Source of the DNA: Candidatus Aenigmatarchaeota archaeon
GTDB taxonomy: Archaea > EX4484-52 > B79-G9
Direction of reading: 5' to 3'
DNA: 27,259 nucleotides
NCBI GenBank assembly: GCA_023139785.1
Contig: JAGLMX010000001.1
Location: 1-27,259 of the forward strand
Positions 7,028-25,471 of the stretch are shown piece after piece. A model generated the notes under the pieces. That model saw only the letters and a program-made list of their open reading frames with translations, was not told the DNA's origin and did not search any database. Within the stretch, counting starts at the first letter, position 1, and the number at the start of each line of letters is the position of its first letter. A program made the position numbers and the translations under genes.

Positions 7028-8413
7028 CTACTTTTTTTGCATTAGATAAAGAGTCCGGCAAGAATTTTTATTTTTTACAGATTCTTTTATGCGAAAATTT
7101 GATTTAAATTTTTTCTCAAAAGAGCCTTGCGTGTAATCATGGAAAATGTCTTCTCTATTTAAGAGAAGCCTTTTTACCTGAGAATCTTCTTTTGGTATGA
7201 ACTCAATGATAAGTGTGTTGCACGCTTTGCTGAAGAAATCCGCGATTTTTTCCAGAGGGGTGTTATTGGATATCGCAAGATGATGGAGTAATGCAAGGGC
7301 GATTGCACTGTCTGCGGGCCCTCTTTGCAGTAAAGACAACCTCTCTTTGTTTTCCCAACCAATACCTGGACTGGGATTTGTTATATCAAGAACTGCCGGA
7401 ATGATCTTCTTTTCATTGGACTCTACGCATGCAAGGTAGTTTTTTTCTACCGCAGCATAATCTATATCAAAAGAGATGACTTGGTTGCAAAATCCTGAAG
7501 CTATTCGGCTGAATTCTCCGGTGTTTGCACCAAGATCCCAGATTGTTTTTGATGAAGGGCTTTTTTTTAGGAATGATTTTAGAACTTCTTTTTTATGAGC
7601 AAATGCGGTTTCAGAGTAGTTCGTGGCATCATAATACTCGGCCCATTCGGTTCCTTTTGGACGCCATTTTAGTTTCTCTATTGTTGAGATAAGGTGCTCC
7701 AAAAGACCAAGGAACGAACGCCTGCTTATTCTGTTAGACTTTAGACTTTTGCCTTTATCTGCGAAGTGGTTTTGGCTTTTTGAGTGCAGATGTATGTGTG
7801 ACAGCAGCGAGAGCATACATCGAGTCCGTAGTGGCAGGAGAGTGCTTGCAAGATTCAGTGGAATTCCGTCAAGGTATATTTTTAACAATTGATTTAGCCT
7901 GACATCTTTGTGGCTCATTAGTGCAATGGGGGCAAGAAAATGCTGGCAGAATTGCCTGTAGGCTATCCACGGTTGTCCTTCGCAATACTTTTCAAATGAG
8001 AGTGTGTCAATGAGGAGTGGCTTTCCGTTCACGAATTGTATATTATACGCGCTGGCATCTTTAAGAGACATTTCATATTTAAGTGCTGTTTTTTGTATGT
8101 TGAGCGTTGCCAGTGCAGCATCCTTTAGCTGGCTGAAGCACCACTCATAAGGATAAGATATGAATGGCACAGGTTCTGGCTTTAGTATTTTGTATGCTAA
8201 GTGATCTTTTTTTATTTTTGAAGACATTTCTTCACATTTGACCAACAAGTTAGTGTCAACAAGGGCTGCGTAAAGCCCGGAATTCATCAACATATCGTAG
8301 TTTTCTTTATATTCTTTGTTTACTTGCCGGTAGAGGGTTCTGTCTTCATAGAAAATAAATCCGCTTGAATCACGAAAAGAACTCGGATGGCTTTGTCTAT
8401 TTGTTTTTTTCAT
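7028..8413 (-). CDS. NoeA-like protein: kinase-like N-domain plus C-terminal SAM methyltransferase
   Basis: N-terminal SFRD, ISYPYEW, LKD119ASAYN124 and LLID136; C-terminal WD293LGANTG motif I, SFDID, ALALLHHL. The NoeA resemblance is from memory and needs a search. Confidence 0.75.
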   Translation of the reverse strand: MKKTNRQSHPSSFRDSSGFIFYEDRTLYRQVNKEYKENYDMLMNSGLYAALVDTNLLVKCEEMSSKIKKDHLAYKILKPEPVPFISYPYEWCFSQLKDAALATLNIQKTALKYEMSLKDASAYNIQFVNGKPLLIDTLSFEKYCEGQPWIAYRQFCQHFLAPIALMSHKDVRLNQLLKIYLDGIPLNLASTLLPLRTRCMLSLLSHIHLHSKSQNHFADKGKSLKSNRISRRSFLGLLEHLISTIEKLKWRPKGTEWAEYYDATNYSETAFAHKKEVLKSFLKKSPSSKTIWDLGANTGEFSRIASGFCNQVISFDIDYAAVEKNYLACVESNEKKIIPAVLDITNPSPGIGWENKERLSLLQRGPADSAIALALLHHLAISNNTPLEKIADFFSKACNTLIIEFIPKEDSQVKRLLLNREDIFHDYTQGSFEKKFKSNFRIKESVKNKNSCRTLYLMQKK

Positions 8414-16868: not shown

Positions 16869-17877
16869 AAATATCCCCCATTTTATCTAATTTTATCGTT
16901 CTCTTTTCTTTAGCAGACAGAAGACCTGCTGTAAGGATTTTTATTGTGCGAAGACCAATTTCACCAGATGCTTTAGGGGTTGTTTTATCTTGTATGCTAC
17001 AGATAAAATCCGTTAGTTCTTCTTTCAATGGTTCTTTCTTTTCTATGCTAAGTTCTACAGGTGCGCTTTTTACGATGTTGTAATATTCTTTATTTTTTTC
17101 GAGGCACTCATTAATTATGATCAGTTTGTTGTTCATTGTGTCAACTTCGGCGCTTCTTTTTTCGCCGGTAATGATAATGTCTCGCATTTTCTTGGGCGTT
17201 AACCATCCGACTTGACAGTATCCGAGTATGTCTTTATTAAATCGTGCAACAATAACTGCTAGATCTTCATTGGAGTTACCTAGATTTCTCGAAGTTATTG
17301 TAGTAATTTCCTCAGGATATACGTCTCCCAAAATATCGCACATTATATCGATATCGTGAACCGCATAGTTTAGTGTTGCACCTACATCATTACGAGGTAA
17401 CTTAAGACCCATCCGTGACGTATATATGCTGTATATTTTTCCGAAAGAACCTGTTTTTAGTTCTTCTTTTAGTTTGTTTATTGCAGAATCATATCTGAAT
17501 AGATGACCCACCATCACGGTTATTTCGTTTTCCTTAGCCAGATCCATTATTTTGTTTGCGTCTTCAACATTCAAAGCCATTGGCTTTTCAATTAAGACAT
17601 GCTTTTTTGCACTGATGAATTCCAATGCAATTCTGTAGTGCATTGACGCGGGCGCGCAAATGCTGACGCCCCGTATTTTTTCGTTAGTAAGAAGCTCTTT
17701 ATATTCTTTTGTGGTTTTTATGGGGTACTTTGCTTCTAGTTCTTTCAATCGGGTTTCATCAATGTCTGCAACCCACACATCCAGACCCAAAGTACAGTAG
17801 TTCCTGATGTGGTTTTCGCCCCATGGACCTGCACCCACCACTCCAATAGACATGCTTTTTTTAGGCATAGAAATCAT
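16861..17877 (-). CDS. wbpB: Gfo/Idh/MocA oxidoreductase (WbpB-like sugar 3-dehydrogenase)
   Basis: GVVGAGPWGENH, HVLIEKPMA, VMVGHLFRY, YAVHDID, EPLKEEL..F. Alternative starts at 17868 and 17853. Confidence 0.82.
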   Translation of the reverse strand: MISMPKKSMSIGVVGAGPWGENHIRNYCTLGLDVWVADIDETRLKELEAKYPIKTTKEYKELLTNEKIRGVSICAPASMHYRIALEFISAKKHVLIEKPMALNVEDANKIMDLAKENEITVMVGHLFRYDSAINKLKEELKTGSFGKIYSIYTSRMGLKLPRNDVGATLNYAVHDIDIMCDILGDVYPEEITTITSRNLGNSNEDLAVIVARFNKDILGYCQVGWLTPKKMRDIIITGEKRSAEVDTMNNKLIIINECLEKNKEYYNIVKSAPVELSIEKKEPLKEELTDFICSIQDKTTPKASGEIGLRTIKILTAGLLSAKEKRTIKLDKMGDICV

Positions 17878-17919
17878 GCAAAGTAATTATTTAATATTTA
17901 TTCATGTTCTTATTATTAT
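17878..17919. promoter_or_regulatory. Bidirectional archaeal-type promoter
   Basis: 42-nt AT-rich gap between divergent ATGs. TTTAATAT about 26 nt before ATG 17920. Shares AAAGTAAT with 2657-2700. Confidence 0.55.
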
Positions 17920-19194
17920 ATGAATCTTTCTGTTATTGGTTGTGGATACGTTGGTCTTGTGACCGCAGTAGGGTTTTCATCTCGCGGGCATGATGTGATA
18001 TGCGTTGACGTGGATGAAAAGAAAGTTGATATGATAAATTCTGGAGAACCACCTATTTATGAGTCAGATCTAGAACCACTCATAAAGTCATGTATTCAAG
18101 AAAAAAAAATTCATGCTACAAAAAACTTTGAAGATGCAGTAAAAAACACACAAATTACTTTTATTTGTGTTGGCACACCCTCTAAAGGGGATGGGGGCAT
18201 GGAGTCTAAATATGTGTTTTCTGTAGCGGACTCCCTGGGCAAGTTTATTGGAAAAAAAGCAGAGTATCATTTAGTTGTTTTTAAGTCAACGATTGTTCCG
18301 GGAACAACAGCGTCTATGATATCGATTATCGAAAAATCGTCTGGCAAGAAAGCAGGCAAAGATTTTGGCGTGTGCATGTCACCGGAATTTCTGAAAGAAG
18401 GCAATGCCCTCGACGATTTTTTTAATCCGGATCGAATAGTTATTGGAGAATTCGATAAGGTTTCGGGAGATGTTCTTGAAAATCTTTTTATCGGCTTTAA
18501 TGCACCAATCCTTCGTACATCCATAAAAGTAGCTGAAACTATAAAGTATGCATCTAATTCATTTCTTGCTATGAAAGTTTCCTTCTCAAACGAGGTTGGA
18601 AATATATGTAAGTTAATGGGTATTGATGTTTATGAGGTTATGACGGGTCTGGGTATGGACGAGCGCATAAGCCCTGAGTTTCTTCGCGCAGGTTGCGGCT
18701 TTGGAGGGTCATGTTTCGGGAAAGATGTTCTTGCATTCATTGATACTTCGAAGAAAATCGGATATGTGCCCTATCTGCTTGAGTCGGTCATGGAGTTGAA
18801 TGAAGCGCAACCAAGTCGCATGATTGAGTTGCTTAAAAAACATACTGCTTTAATGGGCGCAAAGGTTTGTGTTTTGGGTCTCGCATTTAAGCCAGGCACC
18901 GATGACATACGTGATGCCCCGTCTTTGAAAATAGTCAATGAGTTAATCAGTCAAGGTGCAAAAGTGACTGTTTACGATCCTAAAGCAATGGAGAATGCTA
19001 AAAATGTTTTTGGTTCAAACGTAACTTATACAGAATCCGCGGAAGCCGCGGTCTCTCATTCTGATTATGTGTTAATAGTTACTGAATGGGATGAATTTCG
19101 GAACAAACAGCTTTACGTAGATGCGGTTGTGGTCGACGGAAGAAAAATAGATGAAGCCAAAACTGCAAAAGTGTATGAAGGCCTTTGCTGGTGA
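17920..19194 (+). CDS. ugd: UDP-glucose/GDP-mannose 6-dehydrogenase family, Ugd/AglM type
   Basis: IGCGYVG, ICVGTPS, KSTIVPGT, SPEFLKEG, IKYASNSFLA, GFGGSCFGKD (catalytic Cys), GLAFKPGTDDIRDAPS. Confidence 0.9.
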   Translation: MNLSVIGCGYVGLVTAVGFSSRGHDVICVDVDEKKVDMINSGEPPIYESDLEPLIKSCIQEKKIHATKNFEDAVKNTQITFICVGTPSKGDGGMESKYVFSVADSLGKFIGKKAEYHLVVFKSTIVPGTTASMISIIEKSSGKKAGKDFGVCMSPEFLKEGNALDDFFNPDRIVIGEFDKVSGDVLENLFIGFNAPILRTSIKVAETIKYASNSFLAMKVSFSNEVGNICKLMGIDVYEVMTGLGMDERISPEFLRAGCGFGGSCFGKDVLAFIDTSKKIGYVPYLLESVMELNEAQPSRMIELLKKHTALMGAKVCVLGLAFKPGTDDIRDAPSLKIVNELISQGAKVTVYDPKAMENAKNVFGSNVTYTESAEAAVSHSDYVLIVTEWDEFRNKQLYVDAVVVDGRKIDEAKTAKVYEGLCW

Positions 19195-19930: not shown

Positions 19931-19980
19931 TTAGGTGTCGTTTGAAGATACGACGATTATTGTATTTAGGGTGGTTTCGG

Positions 19981-20592
19981 ATGATGATTATTAATTATGG
20001 AGTTGGCAATCTCGGTTCAATTGAGAATATGCTGAAGAAAATCGGTGTTGATTTTTGTAGTTCTTCAGATGTTTCTGAGTTAAAGCGTGCTGATAAGCTG
20101 ATTCTGCCTGGCGTAGGATCCTTTGATGCCGGAATGAAAAACATTAAAGCTTTAGGACTTCTCGATATTTTGAATAAAAAGGTTTTAGGTGAAAAGACGC
20201 CTATTTTAGGCATTTGTCTTGGAATGCAACTTCTTACTGCCGGAAGCGAGGAAGGCATATTGCCTGGTTTGGGCTGGATTGATGCACGGACTGTTAAATT
20301 CAAGTTCAGTATGGCACAAAAACAACTAAAAATTCCGCATATGGGTTGGAACAACATATCATATTCTAAAGAATGCGTATTATTCAAGGAACTGTGTCCG
20401 GAGTCAAGATTTTATTTTGTACATTCTTATCATGTTTTGTGCTCGGATAAAAACCAAGTGGCTGCAACCGCGAATTATGGTTATGAGTTTGCATGCGCTG
20501 TAAATAAAGGAAACATTTTTGGTGTTCAGTTTCATCCCGAAAAAAGCCATAGGTTTGGCATGCAGGTTTTGAAAAATTTTTCTGGAGTTTAG
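19981..20592 (+). CDS. wbuY: HisH-like class I glutaminase subunit (WbuY/AglY type)
   Basis: NYGVGNLGS, LPGVGSFD, LGICLGMQ (nucleophile Cys), FYFVHSYH, QFHPEKS (His-x-Glu). ATG 19981 after GGTGG. Confidence 0.85.
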   Translation: MMIINYGVGNLGSIENMLKKIGVDFCSSSDVSELKRADKLILPGVGSFDAGMKNIKALGLLDILNKKVLGEKTPILGICLGMQLLTAGSEEGILPGLGWIDARTVKFKFSMAQKQLKIPHMGWNNISYSKECVLFKELCPESRFYFVHSYHVLCSDKNQVAATANYGYEFACAVNKGNIFGVQFHPEKSHRFGMQVLKNFSGV

Positions 20593-20593
20593 T

Positions 20594-21346
20594 ATGCTTG
20601 CTACAAGAGTAATCCCGTGCCTGCTTCTTAAAGGAACAGGTCTTGTAAAGACGGTAAATTTCAAGGAGCCGAAATATGTTGGAGATCCCATAAATGCAGT
20701 AAAGATTTTTAATGAAAAAGAAGTTGATGAGTTAGTATTTCTTGATGTTATGGCAACACCAGAGAGCAGGAAGCCTGATTTTGAGCTTATTTCAAAAATT
20801 ACCACCGAGTGCTTCATGCCATTTGCATATGGCGGTGGCATCAATAGCATAGAAACGATAAAAACATTGTTTACATTGGGTGTTGAAAAAGTAGTTCTAA
20901 ATACGGCTGCATTAGAAACGCCATCGCTTGTAAAAGACGCTTCGGCAATTTTTGGAAGCCAAAGTATTGTTGTTTCAATAGATGCCAAAAAAGACCTGCT
21001 TGGCAGGTCTAGATTGTTTATACGCAGTGGAACAAAAAGCACTGGAATCGATCCTGTGCAATTTGCAATACAAATAGAGAAAGCCGGTGCAGGAGAGATA
21101 TTCTTGAATTCAATTGATCATGATGGTTGTATGGATGGATACGATCTTGATTTAATACGCAATGTTTCTGAAGCAGTTAAAATACCTGTGATTGCATGCG
21201 GAGGCGCTGGCAAGCTTGACGACTTTAGAGAGGCAATATGTTTCGGAGCTTCAGCAGTTGCTGCTGGAAGCTTTTTTGTTTTTTATGGACCTCACAAAGC
21301 AGTGCTTATAAATTATCCTTCCCCAAAAGAGCTCAGGGAACTATAA
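20594..21346 (+). CDS. wbuZ: HisF-like glycosyl-amidation-associated protein (WbuZ/AglZ/HisF2 type)
   Basis: RVIPCLLL (canonical HisF is PCLDV, so the catalytic Asp is lost), YVGDPINAVKIFNEKEVDEL, C-terminal AGSFFVFYG..KAVLINYP. Confidence 0.88.
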   Translation: MLATRVIPCLLLKGTGLVKTVNFKEPKYVGDPINAVKIFNEKEVDELVFLDVMATPESRKPDFELISKITTECFMPFAYGGGINSIETIKTLFTLGVEKVVLNTAALETPSLVKDASAIFGSQSIVVSIDAKKDLLGRSRLFIRSGTKSTGIDPVQFAIQIEKAGAGEIFLNSIDHDGCMDGYDLDLIRNVSEAVKIPVIACGGAGKLDDFREAICFGASAVAAGSFFVFYGPHKAVLINYPSPKELREL

Positions 21347-21368
21347 CTCACTTATACGGGGCGATATT

Positions 21369-22487
21369 ATGAGCAACGAATACAAGGTCTGCACAAGATG
21401 TATTATGGATACAACAGACCCTGAGATTAAATTCGGCGATAAAGGAGTATGCAATCACTGTAGACAATACAATATTACTGCAAAGAAATATCTGTTCTCA
21501 GGAAAAGACGGCGAAAGAAGACTTCAGGATCTTTTTTTAAAAGTTCGGCAAAGTGGTATGAATAAGCCGTATGATTGCATAATGGGGCTTAGTGGTGGAG
21601 TCGATAGTACATATGTGGCCTATATTGCAAAGAAACAGGGTTTAAGACCACTTGCGGTACATCTTGACAATGGCTGGAATTCAGAACTTGCTGTTAAGAA
21701 TATTGAGAACATTGTGCGAAAGCTGGATTTGGATTTATACACCCATGTGATTGATTGGGTTGAATTTAGAGACCTTCAAATTTCTTTTTTCAAAGCAGGG
21801 GTAATTGATATAGAAATGCTAACAGATCATGCAATTACCGCGATATTGTATCGATTGGCAAGCAAGCACGGTATAAAATATATATTGAGTGGCAGTAACA
21901 TGGCAACAGAAGGTATAATGCCAACGTCTTGGACGCATAGAAAATCGGATCTTCGAAACATCAAGGCAATTCATAATAGATATGGAAAAGAACAGATGAA
22001 GAGTTTTCCGACTGCAAGTACATTCCAAATATATTTTTGGTATCTTCTTATAAAGCGCATGAAATCGATTAGGGTTTTGGATTATATTGATTATAATAAA
22101 GAAATGGCTATGTCAATAATCGAGAAGGAGCTTGGATGGAAATCATATGGCATAAAACACTATGAATCAATATTCACGCGATTTTATCAGGGGTTTATAC
22201 TCCCCAGCAAATTTGATGTGGATAAAAGAAAGGCACATCTTTCCACACTTATCTGTTCGGGACAGATTTCGCGCGCAGAAGCACTCAAAGAAATTAAAAA
22301 GAATGCTTATGATCACGAGGTGCTAGCGTCAGACAAAGATTTTGTTTTAAAGAAATTGGGTTTCGGCGAAAAACAATTTGAGGAATATGTGAAGAGCAAA
22401 CCAAAAGCTCATTTTGATTATGGTTCTGACGAGTATTTTTTTAAGGTTTTACGTGTCTTAAGTGAGATACTCTATACTAAAACGTGA
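21369..22487 (+). CDS. wbuX: N-acetyl sugar amidotransferase, PP-loop (WbuX/AglX/WbpG/PseA family)
   Basis: CTRC and CNHC zinc motif, YDCIMGLSGGVDST PP-loop, HLDNGWNS, KHYES.FTRFYQ, KFDVDKRK..LS..I.SGQISR.EAL. Confidence 0.9.
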   Translation: MSNEYKVCTRCIMDTTDPEIKFGDKGVCNHCRQYNITAKKYLFSGKDGERRLQDLFLKVRQSGMNKPYDCIMGLSGGVDSTYVAYIAKKQGLRPLAVHLDNGWNSELAVKNIENIVRKLDLDLYTHVIDWVEFRDLQISFFKAGVIDIEMLTDHAITAILYRLASKHGIKYILSGSNMATEGIMPTSWTHRKSDLRNIKAIHNRYGKEQMKSFPTASTFQIYFWYLLIKRMKSIRVLDYIDYNKEMAMSIIEKELGWKSYGIKHYESIFTRFYQGFILPSKFDVDKRKAHLSTLICSGQISRAEALKEIKKNAYDHEVLASDKDFVLKKLGFGEKQFEEYVKSKPKAHFDYGSDEYFFKVLRVLSEILYTKT

Positions 22488-22491
22488 TTTT

Positions 22492-23721
22492 ATGAAAATT
22501 TGCATTATATTGCCTCGCGGATTCCCTCCAGAAATTCGCGTTGAAAAAGAAGCAAGGACACTTTTGAAAGAGGGTCATGAACTTCATCTTATATGTATTC
22601 AAAAAGAATATACTCAGCCATTAGAAGAGCTTGTTCAGGGAATACATGTTCATCGAATTAAAAAGCCGAAAAGGCCATTCGGAAAACTAAGTGGCTTGTT
22701 AACTGTTGAGTTTTTTCTTAATCCTATTTGGACAAGCAAATGGGAGAATAAAATAAAAGAAGTTATAAAAGAACACGGTGTTGATGTTTTAAATGTGCAT
22801 GATTTGCCTGTTGCATATACAACAATAAGAACGGGAAAAAAATATGGCATTCCCATAATTTTTGAAATGCATGAGAATTGGCCTGCGGCTTTAAGTGCTT
22901 GGGGAAAAAGTCACATATATGATCGTCTTTTTATGAATGTGACATTACACAAGATGCTAGAAAAAAAATGTATCAAAGACGCAGATCATATTTTGGTGGT
23001 AGTTGACGAGCAGAAAAAGAGGCTTTTGAAATTAAACATTCCTGAGAAGAAAATCACTGTTGTTTTAAATGTAGAAGATATCAACTATTTTGATAAATTC
23101 TTAATTGACAACGCTCTTGTTTCAAGATATGGTGGAAAGTTCATAATTTCTTATATTGGGGGTATAGGGCCGCATCGTGGGGTGGATACGGCAATCAAGT
23201 CAATGCCCACGGTGCTGAAAAAAATACCTAATGCCAAATTATTGGTTGTTGGAGCAAAGGGCGGAAAATATGTTGACACATTGAAGGTATTGTGCGTGAA
23301 ATTAGGAATTGCCCATATTGTTGAGTTCATAGATTGGGTGCCCTTTGATAAAGTGCCGTCCTACATTGCAGTGAGCCATGTTTGTCTAGTTCCTCATCAT
23401 AGGAGTGAGCATACAGAAACAACAATACCACATAAACTTTTTCAGTACATGGTTATGAAAAAGCCGGTTATAGTGACCGATGTTGCTCCCCTGAAGCGCA
23501 TTGTAGCTGATACTAAAGCGGGTATTGTCGTTTTAGCAGGCAATCCAGAAAAAATGTCTGAAGCGATAGTGTCTTTATCGTCCTCTGAGAGGCAAAGATT
23601 TTTTGGAGAAATGGGGAGAAAATCGGCAGAAAAGAAATATAACTGGTATTTTGAATCAAAAAAACTTATTAGGGTGTATAAAAAATTTGCTAAACATCAA
23701 AAATTGAAAGAGCATTTGTGA
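22492..23721 (+). CDS. GT4 glycosyltransferase
   Basis: FPPEIRVEKEA, HDLP, FEMHENWP, SYIGGIGPHRG, DWVPFD, PHKLFQYM..KKPVIVTD. ATG 22492 after GTGAT. Confidence 0.9.
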   Translation: MKICIILPRGFPPEIRVEKEARTLLKEGHELHLICIQKEYTQPLEELVQGIHVHRIKKPKRPFGKLSGLLTVEFFLNPIWTSKWENKIKEVIKEHGVDVLNVHDLPVAYTTIRTGKKYGIPIIFEMHENWPAALSAWGKSHIYDRLFMNVTLHKMLEKKCIKDADHILVVVDEQKKRLLKLNIPEKKITVVLNVEDINYFDKFLIDNALVSRYGGKFIISYIGGIGPHRGVDTAIKSMPTVLKKIPNAKLLVVGAKGGKYVDTLKVLCVKLGIAHIVEFIDWVPFDKVPSYIAVSHVCLVPHHRSEHTETTIPHKLFQYMVMKKPVIVTDVAPLKRIVADTKAGIVVLAGNPEKMSEAIVSLSSSERQRFFGEMGRKSAEKKYNWYFESKKLIRVYKKFAKHQKLKEHL

Positions 23722-25471
23722 GTGCCATTAAATACGAGCCAATTTCATATGTTCCCTTAAACATTTCGTTAGGATATGTTATTTCCCCTTCTATTGTCAT
23801 AAAGCGTATGGGAATCCCAATTCTGCTTTTTTCAACAAGGTTTTCTTTTAAGATGTTGTTTCCAAATATCCAGCCAAGTGAGTTTAACATGGGCCATTGG
23901 TAATTTTTCCTCCCTCCAGCCAGGATATAATACGATGCGGCGTTGAAGAAAAATGTCTGATGACATTCAAAAAGAAGTTTCCAGTATCTTTGTCTTTTAT
24001 CGAAAGGGCGACGTAAATAAAGGTGTGTTTTTTTAATGAAGGGTATGTCTTCCCACAGGATTGCGCTATCTTCAAGAAACCTTTTGTTTATTGTATGGTC
24101 TATAGTGCGTTCTACATGGCGTAAAACGTCACTTTTGTTTAATATTTTAGAGGCCATGCAGATTCCCCAGAGAGTATACATCTGGTTTTGATGCCGTTTT
24201 GTAGTCATATTGGAGAAAATGAAGAGTCCTTCTCTATCTTGCTTTGGCATAATTTTATTGAGTGCGCGGTCTATCTCTTTTAGAACTGTTTTTTCTTTAA
24301 ACACCTCATAAAAAAAACATAAGCCGAAAAGAACAAGCCCGTCTTCACTATGATTAAAAGAGCAATTTTGTTTCAAGGAGTGATAAAGAGTATATGCAGT
24401 TTCTTTATATTTTTTTTCATTTAGTGTCTGGTATGCTAAAGAAAATGTAATGATGAGCGGGCCGCTACTGTAACTTGGAATGTCTTTTTTCATATCGTTC
24501 TTTATTTTATCACAAAAATATTCCAGCGATTTTTTTATTTTTTTATCATATTTTGGTGTGGCATATTTAGAGGCTCTCCAATACAACAAACCCATTAAAG
24601 CAAAGGAGGAATAACGATAATCTGTTGTCTGCTGTTTTCCCCAAATAATTTGTTTTTTATCAATAGAATATTCAAGACCTCTTGCAATAGATTTTGTTTT
24701 TGAGTCGAAAAACCCATTCTTTTTTGCTGGTCTAAATAGGCAATCAATAGCTTGGTTAAGATAATAAGAATAATCAATTTTTCTTACACACATTACAAAA
24801 TAAGAGGATTTTTCCCAGCTACGATCTTTTGTATATTGCACACTTTTTCTAAATGCTCTTTTGACCGCATAATTTTGTATTGAATTTGGTGCTCTCACTA
24901 AAGAATAATGTAGAGGATGTGGGTATTGATAAATGAATTTACAGTCCTCTAGAAACCACGGACATAAATTTACAAGATTAAAAGCATTTTTTTTAGTGTA
25001 ATATCTAAATTTAGTTTTAGTTTTTTGATAGTATGGAGACTGTGGGGTTGGCACAGAGAAAACAAAAACACCACCTTCTTTTAGCACACGGTATATTTCT
25101 TTTGTCAGTTTATTGATATTTAGAAAAATCCAGTCATACGGTCCTATACATACGATGCCGTCAAAAGAGTTATCCGCATAAGGGATTTTCGGATTTTTTG
25201 GGTGTATTGTGCGGAACTTATTTACTTTTTTTTTGAGAATCTTTTGTGCACATTCATAGGATTGTTTTGAAAAGTCAATTCTTGAGATATCTTGAGATTC
25301 GAGTCCTAGCGTAACTTTGGATTCTGATGCAATATCTAGTACTTTTTTACAACCTCTAGTAAAATTCCATGCAGCACACTTCTCTTCATCACGTAGTTGT
25401 TGCACAATTGGTGGGGCATGATGTTGTTCCACCCATTTCAAAATAAGGTCTCCATTCATAATATTCTCCAT
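23690..25471 (-). CDS. Fusion of a degenerate class I methyltransferase domain and an uncharacterised helical C-terminal domain
   Basis: 593 aa. N-terminal VLDIASES, RIDFS, IPYADNSFDGIVC, YRVLKEGGVFVFSVP; C-terminal ~360 aa of repeated amphipathic helices. Confidence 0.7.
   Translation of the reverse strand: MENIMNGDLILKWVEQHHAPPIVQQLRDEEKCAAWNFTRGCKKVLDIASESKVTLGLESQDISRIDFSKQSYECAQKILKKKVNKFRTIHPKNPKIPYADNSFDGIVCIGPYDWIFLNINKLTKEIYRVLKEGGVFVFSVPTPQSPYYQKTKTKFRYYTKKNAFNLVNLCPWFLEDCKFIYQYPHPLHYSLVRAPNSIQNYAVKRAFRKSVQYTKDRSWEKSSYFVMCVRKIDYSYYLNQAIDCLFRPAKKNGFFDSKTKSIARGLEYSIDKKQIIWGKQQTTDYRYSSFALMGLLYWRASKYATPKYDKKIKKSLEYFCDKIKNDMKKDIPSYSSGPLIITFSLAYQTLNEKKYKETAYTLYHSLKQNCSFNHSEDGLVLFGLCFFYEVFKEKTVLKEIDRALNKIMPKQDREGLFIFSNMTTKRHQNQMYTLWGICMASKILNKSDVLRHVERTIDHTINKRFLEDSAILWEDIPFIKKTHLYLRRPFDKRQRYWKLLFECHQTFFFNAASYYILAGGRKNYQWPMLNSLGWIFGNNILKENLVEKSRIGIPIRFMTIEGEITYPNEMFKGTYEIGSYLMALTNALSIFDV

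Follow-up and report, generated by a model that had tools for sequence, protein, structure and literature searches.

An archaeal member of the NoeA family joins a predicted atypical kinase-like domain to a methyltransferase in a three-gene cassette

The locus and the family of its central protein

The window analyzed here, a stretch of 27,259 nucleotides from a Candidatus Aenigmatarchaeota archaeon (GenBank assembly GCA_023139785.1, contig JAGLMX010000001.1), carries on its reverse strand a tight array of 3 genes, encoding a small membrane protein (in the following, the micro-protein), a soluble protein with a methyltransferase domain, and a NoeB-like membrane protein (Table 1). An original prediction, made from the letters alone, had held that the central protein contains a cryptic protein-kinase-like (PKL) domain at its N-terminus. 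Translation of 7028-8413 places the residues on which this claim was built exactly where they had been assigned, with D119 and N124 in the context LKDASAYNIQF, D136 in KPLLIDT, and D293 in WDLGANTG. The range from 7600 to 8413 that was attributed to the cryptic domain corresponds to residues 1-272, i.e., the N-terminal domain and a linker, and the S-adenosylmethionine (SAM)-binding motif lies outside of it, at 7517-7537, in agreement with the claim that this motif is confined to the C-terminal part. No hydrophobic segment was found in the protein, which is therefore taken to be cytoplasmic.

Table 1. Positions of the kinase-like/methyltransferase gene, its domains and motifs, and its two direct neighbors in the window. 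Residue numbers in the first column, from the second row to the ninth, refer to the 461-aa protein; ORF, open reading frame.
Feature	Position	Strand	Basis or remark
NoeA-family kinase-like/methyltransferase fusion, whole gene	7028..8413	(-)	461 aa, stop codon included; ORF list and translation
Atypical PKL domain (predicted), residues 1-250	7664..8413	(-)	AlphaFold model and fold searches
S12-F-R-D15-S-S-G18, conserved N-terminal stretch preceding strand 1	8360..8380	(-)	Conservation
R29, invariant Arg, second N-lobe strand	8327..8329	(-)	Conservation
Catalytic-loop equivalent (predicted) K118-D119-A-S-A-Y-N124	8042..8059	(-)	Conservation, topology, profile register
D136 (I-D-T), DFG-type metal-binding Asp equivalent (predicted)	8006..8008	(-)	Conservation, topology, profile register
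Class I SAM-dependent methyltransferase domain, residues 268-461	7031..7612	(-)	Fold search, weak Pfam match, profile matches
SAM-binding motif I D293-L-G-A-N-T-G299	7517..7537	(-)	Conservation; aligned with WbdD motif I DLGCAQG
H377-H378 pair	7280..7285	(-)	Aligned with WbdD H132/H133
Small membrane protein (micro-protein), AYLDPGIGS motif	8397..8669	(-)	Overlaps start of the kinase-like/methyltransferase gene by 17 nt
NoeB-like membrane protein, 512 aa	5479..7017	(-)	Begins 10 nt past the stop of the kinase-like/methyltransferase gene

Sequence searches identify the central protein, with near certainty, as a NoeA-family fusion of a PKL domain and a methyltransferase. In a tblastn search, noeA of Sinorhizobium pSymA covered 98% of the query (33% identity, E 1e-50), and a full-length BLASTP alignment with S. 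meliloti NoeA (34% identity, E 2e-74) showed motif I and the His pair to be kept, along with R29, D119, N124, and D136. In the annotation of the S. meliloti locus, nodL is followed by a 71-aa ORF, noeA, and noeB. The family is large: more than 8000 clusters at 90% identity were found among the matches listed, 1771 clusters formed at 50% identity reach E values below 1e-30, and about 185,000 species genomes include at least 594 with a relative.

This family has been described by Krysinska and colleagues (2022; PMC9758233) under the name of its Legionella anisa member, Lani_1194, as containing a kinase-like domain. According to that study, a family Arg (R38 of Lani_1194) is the equivalent of K72 of PKA, while the Glu forming an ion pair with it is not identifiable; the equivalents of D166, N171, and D184 are conserved; the methyltransferase is fused in 94% of family members; and the neighboring genes are conserved, including one for an alkaline-phosphatase-fold NoeB homolog. 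The domain order was also explicitly compared with that of WbdD. The hidden kinase-like domain of the family was thus already published in 2022 (PMC9758233) and is not a discovery of the present study, and the window gene adds a further, archaeal member to this known family.

Fold and catalytic residues of the N-terminal domain

AlphaFold modeled the full-length protein with a predicted local distance difference test score (pLDDT) of 96 and a predicted template modeling score (pTM) of 0.94. Fold searches with this model returned solely class I methyltransferases, covering residues about 250-461, and the N-terminal domain was therefore folded separately. Modeled alone (pLDDT 95.4), residues 1-250 are predicted to adopt a bilobal PKL fold. 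The 50 best Foldseek matches in the PDB were all protein kinases (E from 4e-5), and the same was true for the 50 best matches of VIA-align, an independent and exhaustive method, with moderate Z-scores of 8.5-10 and 165-205 aligned residues, i.e., nearly the whole domain. The check by structure prediction and fold search that had been proposed together with the original prediction thus returned kinases throughout the 50 best PDB matches of either method. Within Swiss-Prot entries of the AlphaFold database, NoeA stood well apart from all others as a structural match of the N-terminal domain (E 2e-20, template modeling [TM] score 0.91, root-mean-square deviation 1.9 Å), and a cluster named "Nodulation protein NoeA" was matched in the ESM Atlas (TM score 0.92). 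Besides NoeA relatives, the AlphaFold database matches comprised homoserine kinase II, AceK, Bud32, and eukaryotic-type kinases, at TM scores of 0.35-0.47. Within the model, helix 93-112 is followed by strand 115-117, K118-D119, N124, the strands 125-128 and 131-134, I-D136-T, and strand 140-142. In this predicted structure, the order of elements is that of the kinase core, with D119 where the catalytic Asp is expected, N124 at the place of the Asn, and D136 at that of the DFG-type Asp.

The original prediction had argued from the spacing of these 3 residues, which it likened to the D-x4-N and the subsequent Asp of kinases. Taken by itself, the spacing is not significant, as a D-x4-N-x10-14-D pattern was present in 21% of composition-preserving shuffles of the 461-aa protein. 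Since the bare spacing occurs by chance, the finding depends on conservation and fold, and both of these back it. Conservation was determined in an alignment of 100 diverse homologs with 41-63% identity to the query, in which D119 is conserved in 98% (the remainder being Glu) and N124 as well as D136 in 99% of the sequences, so that the conservation check suggested earlier also came out in favor of the claim. R29 is invariant (100/100 sequences) and is kept in S. meliloti NoeA as well, where all 4 of R29, D119, N124, and D136 are present. The frequency of the pattern in shuffled sequences, together with the failure to detect a sequence-level match to kinase families, would be expected if the D/N/D motif were a chance match in a domain unrelated to kinases. 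However, 2 fold-search methods applied to a high-confidence model gave kinases alone, and the residues concerned are conserved and correctly placed. Because of these fold results, we regard a chance motif as excluded, its probability being very small.

Additional positions of the N-terminal domain are conserved. The stretch S12-x-[RK]-D15-x-x-G18 is conserved to 98% (S12), 99% (R/K14), 98% (D15), and 95% (G18) and represents a possible stand-in for the Gly-rich loop of kinases, while R29 is the likely equivalent of the beta-3 Lys. Furthermore, a YPYEW motif is near-invariant, with E90 and W91 both at 99%. Residue 60 (8234-8236) is Cys in the window protein, whereas 85% of the family have His at this position, as part of an H-x-E motif in strand 60-63.

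Several results weigh against the interpretation of the N-terminal domain as a working kinase. In line with what the original prediction had noted, a classic Gly-rich loop (GxGxxG) is not present, S12, D15, and G18 being conserved instead, and neither is a beta-3 Lys, in the place of which the invariant R29 is found; moreover, neither Lys nor Glu is conserved within helix 33-44 of the N-lobe in the family alignment. Searches of Pfam and NCBIfam with the whole protein and with 84 N-domain sequences singly yielded no kinase family but noise alone, leaving residues 1-250 blank, and neither phmmer nor profile searches of PDB sequences with the N-terminal domain produced a match. When hhalign was used to compare the domain with kinase profiles from related genomes, the expected D/N/D register was obtained for 4 out of 5 (Bud32, 2 APH-type families, and 1 further family), in which D119 is aligned with the Asp of HGD, N124 with the Asn, and D136 with the DFG-type Asp, although the E values of 0.012-0.37 are individually insignificant. 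The residue equivalences to kinases therefore rest on the topology of a predicted model, the profile register, and the published assignment (PMC9758233). In addition, no biochemical activity has been reported for any NoeA/Lani_1194 member in the literature searched. As no sequence method ties the N-terminal domain to a kinase family, public records for the family carry only names such as "class I SAM-dependent methyltransferase," "PrmA," or "hypothetical," as had been anticipated, and the predicted PKL fold explains a gene that databases label as a methyltransferase alone.

The departures from the canonical kinase residues bear on 2 further explanations. One of them, which the original prediction had raised itself, is that the domain is a pseudokinase, serving as a substrate-binding or scaffold module that positions the methyltransferase; the missing canonical Lys, Glu, and Gly-rich loop would fit, as would the occurrence of the pseudokinases IRAK3 and NFR5 among the top VIA-align matches. 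However, R29, D119, N124, and D136 are conserved to 98-100% across phyla and are kept even in S. meliloti NoeA with its 34% identity, and pseudokinases typically lose such residues. Because the catalytic residues are near-invariant, we consider this option very unlikely. The other explanation is that the domain is catalytic in a non-classical manner, transferring nucleotidyl groups in the manner of SelO (AMPylation) or carrying out another ligation dependent on adenosine triphosphate (ATP). Atypical PKL families with changes such as those seen here (Arg for the beta-3 Lys, no alpha-C Glu, and no Gly-rich loop) sometimes do perform non-kinase chemistry. However, the set of D-x4-N and DFG-type Asp serves phosphotransfer and is near-invariant in the family, and no specific sign of a flipped nucleotide was seen, which leaves this chemistry distinctly improbable. 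Judging from the conserved residues, the N-terminal domain is probably an active phosphotransferase.

Partner proteins, distribution, and genomic surroundings

The micro-protein encoded upstream of the noeA-like gene has 2 hydrophobic segments and matches the 71-aa ORF that precedes noeA in S. meliloti (E 6e-12), including AHAYLDPG(I/T)GS. Its AYLDPGIGS motif is conserved in Omnitrophota and Actinobacteria loci as well. The motif Y[LI]DPG[TS]GS sits right before the main transmembrane helix and basic C-terminal tail of the micro-protein. Its start is ambiguous in the window (TTG at 8669 or ATG at 8630), and in some genomes (e.g., at locus L053 of our survey), the ORF seems to open with M-YLDPGTGS and to lack a hydrophobic segment ahead of it, the signal-like N-terminal part not being universal.

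The NoeB-like protein comprises 4-5 transmembrane segments followed by a catalytic domain of the alkaline-phosphatase/sulfatase fold, with a weak match to the Pfam family Sulfatase (E 1.4e-4). It is 40% identical to the product of the gene in the same position of an Actinobacteria locus and aligns weakly and collinearly with S. meliloti NoeB (E 0.002). NoeB-like proteins conserve D184, T225 (as Thr or Ser), H354, H359, D415, and G417, a residue pattern closer to that of LtaS/EptA-type phosphotransferases than to that of sulfatases. The window copy reads Q-S-D415-E416-G, whereas D-H-G is found in 28/41 relatives (68%) and D-E-G in the other 13/41.

The same 3 genes, overlapping or near-touching, are present in Omnitrophota and Actinobacteria contigs. 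A survey of the cassette covered 80 species genomes, which represent several archaeal lineages and many phyla of bacteria. Of 72 loci with enough upstream DNA, 55 have a gene for a Y[LI]DPG[TS]GS micro-protein that ends where the noeA-like gene starts. A NoeB-like gene follows directly downstream in 35 out of 69 loci, and another 12 have one elsewhere within 6 kb. Other gene families each recurred in at most 8 out of 80 loci; those that do recur are sugar-nucleotide enzymes, glycosyltransferases, and ATPases of the ATP-binding cassette (ABC) type. In several Chloroflexota genomes without a detectable NoeB-like gene (locus L094, 7387-8988, and about 4 other loci), a 534-aa Capsule_synth protein (KpsC/KpsS-type, PF05159) is encoded directly downstream, and a 335-aa protein without a Pfam match holds the position downstream of the noeA-like gene in 6 other loci. 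Both may be alternative partners.

The genome to which the window belongs is a small archaeal metagenome-assembled genome, 59% complete, in which ribosomal protein S4e and an STT3/AglB oligosaccharyltransferase are encoded; these two mark it as archaeal, whereas neither SSU rRNA nor ribosomal protein S8e was detected in it. A search of 60 related genomes, including 3 from the same genus and 12 from the same family, found the kinase-like/methyltransferase gene in none of them. In a quick tree, archaeal copies (Nitrosopumilaceae, Methanomicrobia, and Methanobacteriota) are scattered among bacterial ones, which points to repeated horizontal transfer. The window copy has no supported sister group, and its nearest neighbors by tree path are bacterial (Stahlbacteria, Clostridia, and Ignavibacteria). 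Given its absence from the 60 relatives and the scattered archaeal copies, the cassette is regarded as an acquired accessory unit and not as a trait of the lineage, and the window copy was probably acquired horizontally.

Within the window, the cassette is surrounded by genes for glycosyltransferases, methyltransferases, a GT-C-type enzyme, and sugar-nucleotide pathways. Four adjacent genes at 15128-19194 encode a UDP-sugar 6-dehydrogenase, a GFO/IDH/MocA oxidoreductase, a hexapeptide acetyltransferase, and a DegT aminotransferase; going by their Pfam families, this set looks like a WbpA/B/D/E-like route to 2,3-diacetamido-2,3-dideoxy-uronic acid. By the same kind of assignment, the adjoining genes for a HisH-like glutamine amidotransferase, a HisF-like cyclase, and a PP-loop ATPase at 19942-22487 resemble WbuX/Y/Z-type sugar amidotransferase systems, which make acetamidino sugars. 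Furthermore, a 593-aa protein encoded at 23690-25471 (-) contains a Methyltransf_11 domain at residues about 60-160, the other ~430 residues being without a Pfam match.

Possible chemistry of the cassette and comparison with known systems

The C-terminal domain of the window protein matched class I methyltransferases with VIA-align Z-scores of 15.8-18.1 and also with Foldseek, while the Pfam match (Methyltransf_23) is weak. Profile matches to the methyltransferase domain of WbdD and to others were obtained at E values of about 1e-3. D293, G295, N297, and G299 of motif I are each conserved to at least 90%, and D316 and D343 are conserved as well, in keeping with the Rossmann-like fold, motif I (D/E-x-G-x-G-x-G type), and acidic motif II of class I enzymes. 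The domain also contains a number of conserved basic residues, with K274, H378, and R453 being invariant and R358 and R364 conserved to at least 90%. H377, which precedes the invariant H378, is likewise conserved to at least 90%, and in the profile alignment, the two residues fall on the pair within FHHIV of WbdD, which corresponds to H132/H133 after a 13-residue tag offset. In WbdD, H132/H133 form, together with R203 and Y16, a phosphate site that is essential for its methyltransferase activity (PMC3482155). Going by spacing, Y260 and R453 of the window protein may perhaps correspond to Y16 and R203. In the model, the last methyltransferase strand (454-460) ends the protein, and there is no coiled coil.

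The explanation that we favor overall, with somewhat better than even confidence, is that both domains act on one envelope precursor. The kinase-like domain, in which R29 would substitute for the beta-3 Lys, D119 would be the catalytic base, and N124 as well as D136 would bind Mg/ATP, would use ATP to phosphorylate a hydroxyl group of the precursor at the inner face of the membrane; this precursor would most likely be a lipid-linked sugar or glycan. The fused methyltransferase would then modify the same product, most plausibly at the new phosphate, as in WbdD, and the outcome would be a phosphate-containing decoration, of the methyl-phosphate type, that is handled or completed by the membrane partners. 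By analogy, WbdD-like methylation of the new phosphate is plausible and the most economical reading, although the hints are weak, and the specific assignment of the methyl group to phosphate is tentative, at somewhat less than an even chance.

These hints are tempered by a number of observations. His-His or Tyr-Tyr pairs are located at the same site in NodS and RebM (PMC3482155), which do not methylate phosphate, and the His pair is thus not specific to phosphate. While the phosphate/phosphonate O-methyltransferases MePCE, BCDIN3D, DhpI, and WbdD were among the top structural matches, the Z-scores given above fail to separate phosphate methyltransferases from other kinds. WbdD as the specific closest relative of the domain was considered and rejected, as it was the top match with a full-length profile but came third to sixth with a methyltransferase-only profile, so that the kinship is not robust. 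Moreover, unlike in the WbdD system, no ABC-transporter genes were found in the 27-kb window, and the protein has no coiled coil.

A rival explanation is that the two domains are active on different atoms of the same substrate, with phosphorylation at one position and a separate O- or N-methylation (of a sugar, a lipid head group, or an amine) at another, in which case two independent decorations and no methyl-phosphate would arise. This would agree with the lacking specificity of the His pair and with the best matches of the methyltransferase domain, which mix N-, O-, and C-types (NodS, PH0226, Trm5b, and phosphoethanolamine N-methyltransferases) with scores at least equal to that of WbdD. 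However, the retention of the fusion in 94% of family members (PMC9758233) and the packing of both domains into one body (pTM 0.94) suggest consecutive steps on one product, and the invariant or highly conserved basic residues of the methyltransferase domain fit an anionic acceptor. We consider such separate decorations unlikely, albeit worth keeping in mind beside the favored methylation of the new phosphate.

A more far-reaching proposal concerns the cassette as a whole. The trio of micro-protein, NoeA, and NoeB could constitute a self-contained, mobile pathway, common to bacteria and archaea, that makes a new envelope decoration: starting from a membrane lipid or from a carrier linked to a lipid, the cytoplasmic kinase-methyltransferase would make a methyl-phosphate donor (or another phospho-donor), and the head group of this donor would be moved onto surface glycans or proteins by the outward-facing NoeB-type enzyme, aided by the YLDPGxGS micro-protein. 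If true, this pathway would also account for the host-range effect of noeA/noeB in rhizobia, but we regard it as speculative and clearly improbable in this full form. With respect to the noeA/noeB cassette, the genetic discovery of which dates to 1995, the window contributes a copy from an archaeon, located within a glycan cluster, to an already widespread unit and supports the view of a portable envelope-decoration unit that does not depend on one particular glycan pathway. What the cassette does chemically is no easier to probe from the window copy than in culturable hosts such as Sinorhizobium.

Among known systems, WbdD of E. coli O9a (PDB 4AZS and others) was the one invoked by the original prediction, which had envisaged a functional analog in reverse order, acting as a chain terminator or donor synthase. 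Both proteins combine a kinase fold and a class I methyltransferase in one chain and in a surface-glycan setting, and their methyltransferase domains are weakly similar (E about 1e-3), with the His-His pair aligned. The predicted reversal of the domain order was confirmed: WbdD has the order methyltransferase-kinase-coiled coil, whereas in the window protein, the kinase-like domain comes first and a coiled coil is missing. Furthermore, no sequence similarity was detected between the WbdD kinase domain and the N-terminal domain of the window protein, in which the beta-3 Lys is substituted by Arg, and the WbdD system serves a polymannose (or similar) O-antigen pathway with a Wzm/Wzt ABC transporter, while the partners in the window are the micro-protein and the NoeB-like enzyme. 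WbdD, Lcin_0519, and Lani_1194 have also been treated as separate kinase-methyltransferase families (PMC9758233). With its differing architecture, lack of a coiled coil, and lack of an ABC-transporter context, the window protein is not a member of the WbdD family, and the conserved partners suggest that the overall system is unlike a WbdD-type chain terminator.

The N-terminal domain shares the PKL core with APH/homoserine kinase II, Bud32, and AceK, including D-x4-N and a downstream Asp in the same register, but differs from them by its N-lobe, by the absence of detectable sequence homology, and by structural similarity limited to the TM scores of 0.35-0.47 mentioned above. LtaS/EptA-type phosphotransferases have in common with the NoeB-like protein an N-terminal transmembrane bundle, an outward-facing alkaline-phosphatase-fold domain, the position of a Thr nucleophile, and Asp/His metal ligands, whereas the NoeB-like copy is linked to this fold in Pfam by a weak Sulfatase match and has D-E-G where most of its relatives read D-H-G.

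The closest correspondence is that with NoeA of Sinorhizobium meliloti/medicae pSymA (nodL-ORF-noeA-noeB) and with Lani_1194. The architecture and the R/D/N/D residues are the same, and in the NoeA locus, too, a YLDPGxGS membrane protein (71-90 aa) is encoded upstream and an alkaline-phosphatase-fold membrane protein downstream. In contrast to NoeA, the window copy resides in a small archaeal genome, within a glycan cluster rather than a nod regulon and without a nodL-type acetyltransferase neighbor, and belongs to a highly conserved subgroup of about 60% identity that is spread over many phyla.

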